A DNA stretch of 64,000 bases. It comes from Octopus vulgaris. Its lineage: Eukaryota. Where the stretch lies: NCBI GenBank assembly GCA_951406725.2, contig OX597831.1, forward strand, positions 21,018,001 through 21,082,000, read 5' to 3'. The translations under genes and the position numbers were made by a program. Of this stretch, positions 8,246 through 57,079 are shown piece by piece. The notes under the pieces are model-generated. The model saw only the letters and a program-made list of their open reading frames with translations, was not told the DNA's origin and made no database searches. Numbering within the stretch: the stretch's first letter is position 1; each line of letters opens with the position of its first letter.

Positions 8246-8674
8246 AATTAATTGTTATCGCCATATTAATATGGCAATCTTATAGATATAAGACTAAAAG
8301 CTGTCGCTAATTAGCTCCATGAGGCCATCGCCTTAAGATAGCTATATGACACACATACTGTGTCCATTAGAACCTTCGAACAAGGGAGGTCAGCCGCTTC
8401 ACACTGCTAGTCAGACAGCTACAGACGCGTTTCCGGGTATTTGCCCCTTGTCAATGTAGCGTAGTCGACTCAGCAGGTGTCGCCAGTGATCGTCTCTGTT
8501 CGAAGGTTCTATTTACCTATTTTCGGTGGAATACATCCACTTGTTTTCAATAATAGACACAGTTTGTGTGTCATATAGCTATCTTAAGGCGATGGCCTCA
8601 TGGAGCTAATTAGCGACAGCTTTTAGTCTTATATCTATAAGATTGCCATATTAATATGGCAATAACAATTAATT
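8246..8674. mobile_element. Fold-back element with ~124-bp inverted arms and an apical hammerhead-like motif
   Basis: 8246-8369 is the reverse complement of 8551-8674 with few mismatches. Inner stems are TAGAACCTTCGAACA/TGTTCGAAGGTTCTA and GCTACA/TGTAGC. It sits next to (TA)n. Confidence 0.85.
8418..8460 (-). ncRNA. Type I hammerhead ribozyme motif, degenerate core
   Basis: Minus strand: GCUACA-UUGACAA-GGGG CAAAUA CCC G-GAAA-CGCG-UC-UGUAGC. Stems I and II and a palindromic stem III are present. The core has two changes from CUGANGA. Confidence 0.65.
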
Positions 8675-8871
8675 TCCAGTAACGCTGTCGTAATCTCTTT
8701 TAGAGAGACTCAGTAATTTTAATATTTCTATTAATAATAATAATATTAGGGAGTAAATCCAAACTTACAGGGAAAAATTAATTTTATTTCTATGTATTGG
8801 TTTATAATTTTCACTGTTTGATTTGCCTAATAGTGGTTTTATATCTAATTTAATATATATATATATATATT

Positions 8872-9400
8872 CTCTTACTCTTTAATTGTTTCAGTCATTT
8901 CACTGTGGCCATGCTAGAGCACCACCTTTAGTCGAATAAATCGACCCCATGACTTATTCTTTGTAATCCTGATACTTATTTTATCGGTCTCTTTTGCCGA
9001 ACCGCTAAGTTACGTGGACGTAAACACACCAGTATCGGTTGTCAAGCGATGTTGGGAAGGTGGCGATAAACACAGACACACAAATACTCACACATATATA
9101 TGCATATACATATATACGACGGGCTTCTTACAGTTTCTGTTTATCGAATCCACTCACAAGGCTTCGATCGGCCCGAGAATGTAGTAGAAGACATCCAAGG
9201 TGTCATAATGTGGAGCCTTGCGCGTGCCCTTATTGCATTTATTAATCAGTTATTTACCAGTTATTTTCTCTTTGTAACATTTTATCACATGTCTCTCCAT
9301 GTATGTAAGTATATATATGAATAAACATATATATTAGCATATATATATGTGCTAATATGTATGTTGGTAAACAAGCTAATTACCACACAGCCACTCCTGA
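8872..9400 (-). mobile_element. CORE-like SINE family A, interrupted
   Basis: Reverse complement of family A from tail (8872) to about 9210, with a head remnant TTGGTAAACAAGCTAATTACCACACAGCCACTCCTG at about 9363-9400. Confidence 0.8.
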
Positions 9401-9551
9401 GATGTGTATATATATATATATATATATATATATATATATAGTAGTAACAGAGAAGGAATTTCGATAATCCCCACGTGGGAATTGTAATATATATAAGGAA
9501 TTAAAAAAGGAAAATACATATTATTTACATAATTTTAATATAATTTTAAAT

Positions 9552-9586
9552 ATATCGACCGGTTTCGCTTTCGCTATTCATGATAT
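9552..9586 (-). ncRNA. Minimal type I hammerhead-like motif, degenerate core
   Basis: Minus strand: AUAUC-AUGAAUA-GC GAAA GC-GAAA-CCGG-UC-GAUAU. Topology is complete; the core differs from CUGAAGA at two positions. Confidence 0.5.
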
Positions 9587-10307
9587 TAAGGTAAACTTAT
9601 TTGAATATGTGTTTTCTTAAGACGAAATGTTTGTCCATGTTGTGTTTGATGATATTTACGAGTGAATGACTTCACAAGTAGAAAAATATCGGAAGGTAAT
9701 TAGTTATCGTTATTATTGTGGGTAAGGGAGGTAACTGTTCAGCTTTCGGTAAGGGGAGGGAAATATATATATATATATATATATATATATATAGGTAACT
9801 TGAAAACGTGTTAATTAATTTTTGAAGATATATATACATATATAGAGCTCTCTATATACAGCACTACAACTATATCACCACATACCAGGAACTCCACGCT
9901 GCAGCACTATATCACACACAACACTAGGTTACACACTGCACTATACATCACAACGACATACATTGACTACCATACTTTCCATCATACATCTCGGCATGGC
10001 ATATAGTAAACAGATGCATTTCACATGGAATTCTTATTCCTCCAAAGTCGTCTTGATATATAAGTCGACTGTTTCAGGTGTAAATTTTGGTCTGAAAATT
10101 TCTACCCTAATTTGCATGACGGAGAATTTCGTACTCAAAGAATTTCTTTCTGATTTGGTAATCTTTTCAAATAATCTTTTTCGCATAAAATTTTGTTCCA
10201 GAAACTTTTAACAATCTTTCACGGTGCAAGCGGTATTAACGAATTTAAAACCATTAACAACAGCAGCGGCACCAATCACCAGTGAATAAATTTCACTGAA
10301 AAAAAAA

Positions 10308-10452
10308 ATATATTTACGAAGTCTAGACAGATACCTTCAGCTAGCAGGCCTCTGCTACTCTAGACCGAAGATGGGCAAAGACCCTGAAACATGCGTGTCT
10401 CTAGATGCAGGCCTAGCTGTTGGGGGTATTTGTCTCCCCTTCGTAAATATAT
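10308..10452 (+). ncRNA. Rod-like hairpin with an apical type I hammerhead motif (10359-10405)
   Basis: UCUAGA-CCGAAGA-UGGG CAAAGA CCC U-GAAA-CAUGCGUG-UC-UCUAGA. Outer pairings: ATATTTACGAAG/CTTCGTAAATAT, AGACAGATACC/GGTATTTGTCT, CAGCTAG/CTAGCTG. Confidence 0.7.
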
Positions 10453-53890: not shown

Positions 53891-55578
53891 TGTGTATGTA
53901 TATGTATTTGTGAAACTGAACAGAAGCCCATTGTATTTATATGTGTGTGTATGTGTATCTATCTACATGCGTGTCTTTATGATTGTCCCTTATTAATCCT
54001 CGGTTAATGGTGTTGCTTTGTTTACATCCCCGTAACCGAGCGGCTTGGCGAAGGAAAGGCGCTAGAATAACGGCTAGGTTTGAAACAAAAATAAGTATCG
54101 TTCCATAAAAAATCTTCAAGGTAGTCCCACGACTGAAAAAAGTAATGGATAAAAGAAATATATTGCTTGTTTGTTCTGCACAAAATAGCGTATATTTAAG
54201 ATCTAGATTCAGCCAATCAATATTGAGCTCTCTTTCGAAACTCGGACAAGTGTGATAAAATGAGTATAATCCATATATTGATCTTTATAATTTGAAATTG
54301 TCTGGAGTATTGATTTCTAAATATATCATTCTTTTAAATTGTTTTACAGATTACGTCACGTACTGTCTATCTGCAGTCTATCTTTCTCTCCCCACTCTAT
54401 ATGTGGGTAAAAGTAAGCATGTATGTATATATGTATATGTGTATGTATGTATGCATGTATGTATACGTATGTACGTGCATGTGTTTGTATGAATGTATAT
54501 ATATATTTATATATATGTGTGTATATATGTATATATATATGTATATATATATGTATATATATATATGTATATATATGTATATATATATATATATAACCAA
54601 AAAAGTTCGTTTCTATGTTTTTGCATTTATGTTTTCGTTTCTCATTGTATTCAAGGTTTTTTTGATGTCCCGTACCCATATATGCATGTATATATATATA
54701 TATATACATATATATGTAGGTATGTACATATGTGTATGTATGTATGCATATATATATATATATATATATATATATATATACATATATATATATATATATA
54801 TATATATATATATATATATAAATATGTATATGTATATATATATATATATGCATTATGTATATGTATAAGAATGTATATGTCTATATACGTATACATGTCT
54901 TTCTCTCCCTCCCTTTCTCTTTCTCTCTTTCTTTCGAAATAAATATATCTATATATAAATACATACACACACACACACATATATATATATATATTTACAT
55001 ATGCAGATACAGCGAGAGAGAGAAAAAGAGAGTGGAAGAGAGAGACAGAGTGAGTGAAAGAGGGAAAGAAAGAAAGTGAGAGTGAATTGGCTCTAATATT
55101 GGATGGTATATTATGTATCGAATCCGAAACGGTCTGAGGCACAAATGACTTCGGTCGGACGGATGTGAAGTTAGAGCGCAATTAATTGGAATGAATAGAC
55201 TTGACATGCATATCTCACACTTCGACGATTCTATCATTTCAAAGAGCGTGTGCTTATCTACATAGGTGTATGTGTGTGGATGTGTGCATATATTCGTCTT
55301 CAATTTGCCTGTTTTAATCATTGGAATGCAACCACACAAGACGTGGCTTGGAAAGGTTTCGTGAACAAATCGACCCAAATACTTATATACATTACTTTAT
55401 GTTTCGCACTTCTATCGGGCTCTTATTACCGAAGCACTAGAACAAATTTTCTCAAACGGGGTTCCCCAATACACTAGGATTCCGCAAAAGGTTTCTAGGG
55501 TGTTCCACGAGAAAGAGTGAAACAAGCTAATGCTACACACTAACACATACACACACACACACTTATCTCTATATATAG

Positions 55579-56385
55579 AGGCGCAGGCGTGGCTGTGAGG
55601 TAAGAAGCTTGCTTTCCAACCACGTTGTTACAGGGTTCAGCTCCACTGCGTGACAACTTGGGCAAGTGTCTTCTACTATAGCTTTGGGCCTACCAAAGCC
55701 TTGAGAGTGGATTTGGTAGACGGAAACTAAAAGAGGCTGGCCGTATATATATATATATATATATATATATATATATATATATATATATATATATATATAT
55801 ATATATATATATATATATATATATATATATATATATATATATATATTGATAGAAATGGTAAGACAACAAGAAAAATGAAAGACACATCGATATTACGTAA
55901 ATACAGGAATTTATCTGTAAATATAATATGTGACAATTATTCGGTAGCCATGATAAAACTCCGAGTTTCGGATGTCGGGGCGAAAACCCAAGCTACCATC
56001 TCTTTTTCGATGGCCCGATAACTGTAGAGATGGCGGTACGGGTTTCTGCCCAACATCCGATACTCGGAGTTTTATCATGGCTACCGAATAATTGTCATAT
56101 ATTACATTTACAGATATATATATATATATATATATATATATATATATATATATATATATATGTTAGTGTGTGTGTATGTGTGTGTCTGTCCCAGGCCATC
56201 GCTTGACAACCAATGCTGTTGTGCTTATGTTCCCGTGAATGTTCGGCAAAAGAGACCAATATAATAGGTAATAAACTTACAAAAAATAAGTCCTAGCGTC
56301 CCTTTGTTCAAATAAAAAAAACGTTTCAAGTGGTGCTCCAGCATGACTGTATTCAAAAGACTAAACCAAGTGAAAGATTAAAGAA
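55579..56385 (+). mobile_element. Family A SINE whose internal (TA)n tract hosts a hairpin insertion
   Basis: 5' half at 55579-55745 and 3' half at about 56170-56385. Confidence 0.8.
55912..56116 (+). ncRNA. Fold-back element with a type I hammerhead motif (56017-56076)
   Basis: ~90-bp inverted arms. Plus strand: GAUAA-CUGUAGA-GAUG..CAUC C-GAUA-CUC G GAG-UU-UUAUC. The inverted arm retains GAAA (reads CATCCGAAACTCGGAG on minus). Confidence 0.65.
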
Positions 56386-56398
56386 TAATACACACAGT

Positions 56399-56818
56399 AG
56401 GCGCAGGAGTGACTGTGCGGTAAGTAGCTTGCTTACAAACCATATGATTCTGGGTTCAGTCCCACTGCCTGACAGCTTGGACAAGTGTCTTCTACTATAG
56501 CCTTGGGCCGACCAAAGCCTTGTGAGTGGATTTGGTAGACGGAAACTTAAAGAAGCCCGTCATATATATGTATATGCATATATATGTTTGTGTGTGTTTC
56601 TGTCTGTGTTTGTCACTTAACATCGCCTGGCACGCGATGCTGGTGTGTTATGTCCACGTAAGCTAGCGGTTCGGCAAAAGAGTCCGATAGAATAAGTACT
56701 AGGCTTACAAAGAATAGGTCCTGGCTTTGGTTTACTCTACTAAAGGCAGTGCTCCAGCATGGGCGCAGTCAAATGATTGAAAAAGTAAAAGAGTAAAAGA
56801 GTAAAAGAGTAAAGAGTA
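56399..56818 (+). mobile_element. Full-length family A SINE
   Basis: Head GGCGCAGGAGTGACTGTGCGG and a (GTAAAAGA)n tail. Confidence 0.92.
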
Positions 56819-56973
56819 ACACATACACACACACACACATATATTTACATATGTATACTTGTATGTGGATGAACTATATATATATATATATATATATCGG
56901 AGTAAACACATAAATGTGAAACAAGGTGGAAAAAAGAGTACTCAAATACCAGTGGTAGAGTAATATTCTTTAT

Positions 56974-57079
56974 TTAAAGCAGCAGAAAATTCAACAAAAT
57001 CTGTTACTCTGAGTTTCTCTGATGAACGGCAACGAGAAACTCAGAGTAACAGATTTTGTTGAATTTTCTGCTGCTTTAA
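56974..57079 (+). ncRNA. Perfect 46-bp inverted repeat enclosing an intact hammerhead core
   Basis: Arms at 56974-57019 and 57034-57079. CUGAUGA-A CG GCAA CG A-GAAA-CUC A GAG-UA at 57019-57048. It lies between (TA)n tracts. Confidence 0.75.

Follow-up and report, generated by a model that had tools for sequence, protein, structure and literature searches.

In a 64,000-nt stretch of the Octopus vulgaris genome (contig OX597831.1 of assembly GCA_951406725.2, positions 21,018,001 to 21,082,000; here called the window, with positions counted from its first letter), four of the eight sites at which a first-pass annotation had placed hammerhead ribozyme (HHR) motifs are, as judged by structural modelling, real type I HHR motifs, and three of these could fold. 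The motifs at 8418, 9552, 10359 and 57019 stand, and those at 56017, 19400, 38537 and 42730 need at least two or three deviations from the hammerhead rules. The same annotation had interpreted the motifs as belonging to ribozyme-bearing non-autonomous retroelements or to termini of Penelope-like elements (PLEs), which fits the multi-copy family, the head-to-tail units and the covariation described below. The confirmed motifs are probably the hammerheads of PLE pseudo-long terminal repeats (pLTRs) and of their non-autonomous derivatives, the non-LTR retrozymes, accompanied by inverted 5'-truncated copies. As a whole the pattern has been described before (Cervera & de la Pena 2014, 2020; Craig et al. 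2021; a 2026 bioRxiv preprint on animal retrozymes) and is no new class; the unusual core variants are one point of interest. The window DNA is AT-rich, gene-poor, and crowded with microsatellites and dispersed repeats, among them short interspersed nuclear elements (SINEs) that we take to be octopus-like. The principal features are:

8246-8546, minus strand: element A, about 300 nt, non-coding, with a 5' mini-hairpin, an imperfect rod with the HHR at its apex, and then a 3' region
8418-8460, minus strand: type I HHR of element A, core 8454-8448 with a U3-A8 covariant pair, predicted cleavage after 8424
8551-8674, plus strand: the last 124 nt (3' end) of element A repeated in inverse orientation at 98% identity, forming a fold-back
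9552-9586, minus strand: minimal type I HHR with an A3-U8 covariant pair, within a 322-nt segment (9441-9762) flanked by two TA tracts, no fold-back
10278-10624, plus strand: element B, a 347-nt copy of a multi-copy family, with a 5' mini-hairpin (10278-10300) and a rod (10308-10450)
10359-10405, plus strand: type I HHR of element B, core 10365-10371 with U4C and a U10.1-U11.1 mismatch, predicted cleavage after 10399
50837-52376, plus strand: tandem array in which a 505-nt unit is present three times, with an intact type I HHR in every unit (cores 51064, 51569, 52074), right end at a TA tract
56974-57079, plus strand: fold-back of 46 perfectly paired bp that runs right up to a TA tract, in which a 5'-truncated element end (57019-57079) is preceded by its inverted copy
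57019-57048, plus strand: HHR remnant with exact core, stem II, helix III and UA, stem I partner lost

Since Rfam misses even the three intact hammerheads of the array, we used explicit type I hammerhead grammars (core, stems I to III, cleavage site) and compared the window with shuffled windows, leaving the array out. The core tested was C3-U4-G5-A6-N7-G8-A9 / GAAA / UH, or a known covariant. Every grammar rule was written post hoc, with the sites already known, and the shuffle P values are therefore too favourable. When core changes were allowed, 8454(-), 9581(-) and 10365(+) were added, which correspond to the annotated motifs at 8418, 9552 and 10359; dropping the stem I requirement added 57019(+) and 604(+). 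An intact core with any Watson-Crick 3-8 pair was found at two sites outside the array against 0.04 in shuffles (reached in 1 of 600), and allowing at most one further deviation gave four sites against 0.28 (1 of 600). The tighter of two two-mismatch rules (rule C) yielded 3 sites against 0.32 (1 of 150 shuffles), and the union rule 8 against 1.51 (0 of 600), three of which (26446, 32825 and 41971) are probably noise. Under these post hoc grammars the motif topology is above chance. Both cores with two changes are altered precisely at positions 3 and 8 with the pairing still Watson-Crick, for which the expectation is about 1 in 45 each, assuming uniform changes.

The three HHRs predicted to fold are built as follows. 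Those of elements A and B each have a 6-bp stem I, a 3-bp stem II and a UC cleavage site, with a palindromic helix III (CGCG) in A and a self-complementary helix III of 8 nt in B. The HHR at 9552-9586(-) has a 5-bp stem I, a 2-bp stem II with a GAAA tetraloop, CCGG, and UC. Relative to the minimum free energy structure, the HHR fold costs 2.3 (8454), 2.4 (9581), 3.2 (10365) and 5.4 kcal/mol (array unit), compared with 15.3 (57019), 11.2 (14938) and 16.0 kcal/mol (604) for copies that would not fold. In the 57019 copy, an inverted 46-bp copy of the 3' end replaces stem I, and the resulting hairpin lies 15.3 kcal/mol below the HHR fold; according to the model this copy cannot fold as an HHR.

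Elements A and B are colinear homologs. The alignment of 8246-8550(-) with 10278-10624(+) has 180 identities in 308 columns and scores 130 against 38.3 ± 6.2 for shuffled sequence (z 14.8, 0 of 500 shuffles), and the parts lacking the HHR are significant by themselves (5' z 5.6, 3' z 5.0). In both elements the rod (8368-8511 in A) is imperfect, about 145 nt long and capped by the HHR. We tested 25 base pairs, 24 from an RNAalifold consensus plus the 3-8 pair: all 25 are kept, and in eight, among them the 3-8 pair and two pairs of stem I, both partners have changed, compared with 0-1 in slid controls. From sequence comparison, this covariation is suggestive, not proof, of conserved HHR stems. 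A covariance model built from the two rods found no third member within the window. Among 12 candidate segments (66 pairs), only four pairs exceed z 2.5, namely A/B, two weak pairs and one strand self-match, so that motifs other than A and B belong to different families; weak similarities were seen between 604 and the array (z 3.7) and between 604 and the 19400 segment (z 4.4), 60 shuffles each. The annotated view that the motif segments are mostly unrelated holds for most pairs and fails for 8454 and 10365, which are distant homologs. Rod folding gave no support for a strand asymmetry, with the 8454 rod folding better on the strand opposite its HHR and the 10365 rod on the same strand. A same-base 10.1/11.1 mismatch (G-G, U-U or A-A) in place of the usual G-C was observed at 8434-8447(-), 10372-10385(+) and 57026-57035(+).

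The multi-copy status of the element B family comes from public contigs of four of 24 listed runs, aligned to 9800-10630 (831 nt) at 80% likeness; contig depth was not taken as copy number. None of the 24 runs is recorded as RNA, and one that covers the HHR and might be RNA was left aside as evidence of expression. Over the 831-nt stretch as a whole, the contigs numbered 2479, 1823, 1236 and 297 in the four runs, and a pile-up over 10308-10624 was seen in all four. One head-to-tail joint leads from 10624 to 10308 with 38 letters between, including the 5' mini-hairpin, and a second from 10627 to 10278 with 7 letters between; they give unit lengths of 355 and 357 nt. Six opposite-strand joints, each in a single contig, lie at differing places, one being the rod's own axis. 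Among the loose ends listed, clusters occur in the four runs behind 10571 (41, 32, 30, 11) and behind 10624 (25, 21, 15, 2). Letters past 10571 are still element-like for about 10 nt, the end of element A is the position homologous to this cluster, and the 3' flanks of element B are mixed and A/T-rich (agreement about 0.5). Depth is lowest at the 5' end of element B, which suggests 5' truncation. No Pfam match was found in three open reading frame (ORF) fragments over element B, and a degenerate pattern of the HHR shared by A and B gave no match in metagenome contigs and none in viral contigs.

Within the family, N7 is U in nearly all depth (59, 28, 22 and 10 contigs). In the best-supported 40 of 66 variant rows, the other HHR variants fall in loop 2 or change one G-C to G-U in stem II, two more in the rod likewise give G-U pairs, and there is no change at U4C, GAAA, helix III or UC. 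From these rows we infer that most element B copies keep C4. The expectation that family cores would revert to CUGANGA does not seem to be borne out: N7 varies, but no reversion to U4 is seen in the same rows.

The relation of the motifs to (TA)n tracts and fold-backs is mixed. The window holds 143 TA tracts of at least 5 units, and the median eligible base lies 289 nt from the nearest, because of which motif proximity to (TA)n is unremarkable. With two motifs added to the four confirmed ones, the mean distance of the six is 236 nt (P 0.11; P 0.056 for tracts of at least 8 units). Several 3' ends do adjoin TA tracts, namely those of the 57019 element (57079), the 8246 element, the array (52376) and the HHR-less 55912 hairpin. 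Element A has its 3' end 9 nt from the TA array at 8010-8237, with a short AAT run between. Inverted copies of element 3' ends are present at 8551-8674 and 56974-57019, and in the array the first 116 nt are inverted; the 8551-8674 arm is homologous to the 3' part of element B, which lacks an inverted copy. A credible HHR is present in four of the 12 fold-backs whose arms reach at least 25 bp (array included). In 4 of 12 the outer end lies within 12 nt of a TA tract against 0.033 per random base, a count inflated by self-complementary TA, which lengthens the arms. Three statements of the first-pass annotation are affected. That the motifs usually lie next to (TA)n finds no support in the motif distances, which are not beyond chance (P 0.19, four sites). 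Their usual placement in hairpins holds for three of four confirmed sites (9581 is not in a fold-back), but only 4 of 12 fold-backs bear a credible HHR. TA targeting agrees with the element 3' ends that adjoin TA tracts and disagrees with the 10365 family, which ends in mixed A/T-rich flanks, and with motif distances not below chance. The further suggestion that the elements might seed or expand TA tracts draws no support from these observations.

The mechanism that we propose would begin with a PLE reverse transcriptase (RT)/GIY-YIG protein encoded elsewhere, the presumed mobiliser, which would nick AT-rich or (TA)n DNA. Reverse transcription would start at preferred internal sites of a short RNA, 3' of the hammerhead, and would often stop early; a second, inverted 5'-truncated copy would then be placed beside the first, if this order of events is correct. 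Such inverted copies would yield fold-backs whose 3' end faces the target. A hammerhead with a short palindromic helix III may cut multimeric transcripts as a dimer, presumably giving monomers or circles; it is this short palindromic helix that suggests dimer-dependent cleavage of multimeric RNA, as described in PMC4209133 and PMC6765202. Single genomic copies would mostly be dead ends.

Several results weigh against a PLE origin of the motifs. Rfam at gathering thresholds gave no match in the window, missing the intact array hammerheads as well (at E up to 5 there were 489 matches, with no hammerhead in the 150 listed, all of which were simple repeats matched by microRNA-type or other hairpin families). 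The canonical core with stems I to III (rule A) gave no site outside the array, which alone passes; the loose two-mismatch rule (rule D) gave 3 against 1.44, reached in 29 of 150 shuffles and not significant, and the loosest rule (rule M) gave 12 against 6.0 per shuffled window (21 of 600 shuffles). An excess of motifs over shuffled sequence is present under the tight variant-core rules (4 against 0.28, 1 of 600), absent under the canonical core (0) and not significant under the loose rule (29 of 150). The four confirmed motifs have a mean distance of 244 nt to a TA tract (P 0.19, not below chance), and the nearest tract to the 10365 motif is 587 nt away, so that element B is not at a TA tract. 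The covariation involves two sequences only and a structure derived from their own consensus. Copy evidence is limited to one family, that of element B, and each of its head-to-tail joints is a single contig; at 80% likeness such joints can arise from other repeats. In 131 of 266 ORF fragments scanned, no PLE RT or GIY-YIG domain was found beside any site. Finally, the PLE consensus has a G10.1-C11.1 pair beside GAAA, and this pair is missing from elements A and B.

Four other explanations were weighed. That the motifs are chance matches, aided by hairpin context and a tolerant pattern, is true for 56017, 19400 and 38537 and perhaps for 42730, and agrees with the 6.0 matches that the loose rule yields per shuffled window and with three noise-like matches of the union rule. 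As an account of the confirmed sites it is extremely unlikely: the tight rules were reached in 1 of 600 shuffles, both two-change cores are compensatory, the diverged homologs A and B keep the HHR stems by compensatory changes, and family variants avoid GAAA, helix III and UC in the best-supported 40 of 66 variant rows. It is very unlikely that the fold-backs are class II miniature inverted-repeat transposable elements (MITEs) inserting at TA, some of which carry or captured a hammerhead by accident. Long near-perfect arms beside TA, the 8 of 12 fold-backs without a credible HHR, and mariner-like relics in the window (an HTH_48 match) would suit MITEs, and the MITE explanation may yet apply to hairpins that have no HHR, 38055-38280 for example. 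However, the 8246 fold-back takes its arm from the 3' part of a linear element, and the homolog of that element (10278-10624) lacks an inverted partner, which speaks against fixed terminal inverted repeats; arm lengths vary (46, 68, 116 and 124), opposite-strand joints in the family fall at differing points, and the 57019 fold-back cuts through the ribozyme.

Helentron-type elements have terminal hairpins, tandem joints, A/T-rich or T-run targets, and subterminal inverted repeats with a 3' hairpin. Elements A and B show small hairpins at their ends, 3' flanks rich in T/A and tandem joints, and by this likeness could be rolling-circle (Helitron/Helentron-type) non-autonomous DNA elements with the hammerhead as a passenger. 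We regard this as highly improbable, given that diverged subfamilies have kept the hammerhead together with its stems, that depth is lowest at the 5' end, suggesting 5' truncation, and that there are two 3' end clusters. More credence, if still tentative, can be given to plain 5'-truncated ends, either of autonomous PLEs or of HHR-bearing SINEs moved by a different non-LTR RT, in which case the units would have no retrozyme cycle of their own. For 9581, 57019 and 14434-14556 it is the simplest account. PMC4209133 ascribes most minimal HHRs of animal genomes, which occur as single motifs, to truncated PLEs, and an anole PLE is described as inserting in vitro without any need for HHR cleavage (PMC11167929). 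Against it, the element B head-to-tail joints, with 7 and 38 letters between, leave no room for an ORF. It shares its mechanism with the PLE-derived retrozyme interpretation and differs solely in the autonomy of the unit. An extended form of that interpretation appears unlikely to us: a retrozyme-like radiation of about 355 nt in which rewired cores (family-wide U4C, U3-A8, A3-U8 and the 10.1/11.1 mismatch) would be kept by selection and still cleave as dimers, and in which PLE fold-back insertion at TA would also be a main source of the genome's long perfect hairpins, and hence of double-stranded RNA for editing or small-RNA pathways.

The interpretation as PLE pLTRs and derived retrozymes agrees with described systems, as far as the sections of the literature consulted extend. 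Animal genomes are reported to contain thousands of single minimal HHRs each, as well as tandem retrozymes (350-390 bp in mussel), for which a PLE origin is in print; a squid genome paper gives 235 hammerhead-1 matches, and an octopus repeat annotation describes recently active Penelope families, its main text containing neither "hammerhead" nor "ribozyme". The minimal HHRs of PLE pLTRs (Cervera & de la Pena 2014, PMC4209133) are likewise type I, with a short palindromic helix III and AU-rich flanks, and occur as many dispersed single motifs in several sequence families; the U3-A8 pair is described there as a PLE hammerhead variant and also counts among the natural covariants of PMC3088659. 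In contrast to those, no RT-endonuclease ORF was found beside the octopus motifs in the 131 of 266 fragments scanned, and elements A and B have the 10.1/11.1 mismatch and a long imperfect rod as stem I. Animal non-LTR retrozymes (Cervera & de la Pena 2020, PMC7229834; bioRxiv 10.64898/2026.07.22.740005) resemble the octopus units (about 355 and 505 nt) in being non-coding and a few hundred nt long, each unit having a single type I HHR and a highly self-paired RNA; both occur as monomers and as tandems, and for both mobilisation by PLEs is proposed. Element B, dispersed in many copies, is non-coding, carries a single type I HHR and falls within the 150-1000 nt expected of a retrozyme. In contrast to these retrozymes, the window copies outside the array are monomeric and have variant cores (U4C, U3-A8).

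PLE insertions are often 5'-truncated, with an inverted 5'-truncated copy, a (TA)n preference and an optional tail (Craig et al. 2021, PMC8557442), and an anole PLE cuts AT-rich DNA on both strands with RT starting at two internal sites (PMC11167929). The octopus elements resemble these Neptune and Naiad type insertions and the anole PLE in the inverted 5'-truncated copy by the 5' end, and may also resemble them in (TA)n or AT-rich targets and in two 3' initiation sites; the published optional tail measures 30-40 bp, compared with 53 nt between the element B clusters by loose-end position, among the loose ends listed. U3-A8, U4C and the U10.1-U11.1 mismatch are all mentioned among natural core variants (Perreault et al. 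2011, PMC3088659), where U4C is of low activity in vitro yet sufficient for a viroid in vivo. Such variants are rare single cases there, whereas in this multi-copy animal family most copies appear to have U4C, judging from the best-supported 40 of 66 variant rows. We found no description of these cephalopod families in the hammerhead, Penelope and retrozyme literature, nor of a natural A3-U8 core, in a search that covered mostly non-subscription literature and whose supplements may list some. In this TA-rich animal genome, a number of short repeats and fold-backs that had no label can be classed as probable Penelope-dependent ribozyme elements, which Rfam and canonical-core scans miss. The gain is mainly one of annotation, because the overall pattern is published for other animals; the natural core variants, U4C in a high-copy family and A3-U8, would lend themselves to tests of hammerhead catalysis, should they be active.

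Further HHR relics, fold-backs and segments in the window are:

604-643, plus strand: HHR relic absent from the first-pass annotation, with exact core, 12-nt palindromic helix III and UA, stems I and II decayed
14434-14556, plus strand: 123-nt segment between two TA tracts, beginning with a minimal HHR 3' half (4-bp stem II, GAAA-CG-UU), core damaged
14898-14945, minus strand: HHR relic likewise absent from that annotation, with 7-bp stem I, A9C core, 8-nt palindromic helix III and UC, stem II decayed
42636-42945 (outer limits approximate), minus strand: old fold-back, beginning where a TA tract ends
55912-56116, strand not assigned: fold-back with a 68-bp arm (94%), ending directly at a TA tract, with no HHR at 56017 on either strand

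The 14434-14556 segment looks like a 5'-truncated pLTR end; a scan for minimal HHR 3' halves gave 2 matches against 0.24 (11 of 400 shuffles), of which 14458 is credible and 11144 is not. Within the old fold-back, 42740-42720 is a decayed HHR 3' half (GAAA-palindrome-UC by eye) with a broken core, and the 42730 candidate was rejected as an HHR, since it needs at least 3 deviations and is at most this decayed half. The candidates at 56017 and 19400 each depart from the core and cleavage-site rules at least 3 times, and 38537 at least twice, the best readings of the three taking 2-4 deviations, and all three were rejected; 18093(+), 26446, 32825 and 41971 were taken as chance matches. A two-copy repeat between TA tracts (7411-7530 and 52400-52735) has the first half of the core and a GAAU-type second half, and is not a canonical hammerhead. 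In the tandem array, unit ends fall at the word TTAATTAA, away from the ribozyme cut site, and the first 116 nt are flipped in place, not duplicated, resembling a twin-priming inversion.

Next to element B, 9996-10107 is a separate multi-copy repeat fragment with a depth peak and loose ends at 10015 in the contigs. An inverted 286-bp repeat is present at 10636-10921 and 17764-18049 (95% identical), one copy of which begins 12 nt past element B; a relic near this repeat is presumably mariner-like. At 62558-63249, a broken non-LTR RT fragment lies beside a Mos1-type helix-turn-helix fragment (RVT_1 match 62944-63249, E 3.4e-6, below the cut-off). The fold-backs at 374-471 and 2722-2849 have their TA tract at the centre, not at the end. 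Three-unit tandem arrays of a 184-bp repeat, in which the grammars used detected no hammerhead, occur in opposite orientations at 15671-16222 and 34943-35498, and a large CCAA-rich satellite with a 126-bp period spans 20268-26156, with an inverted block at its right end (25862-26156).

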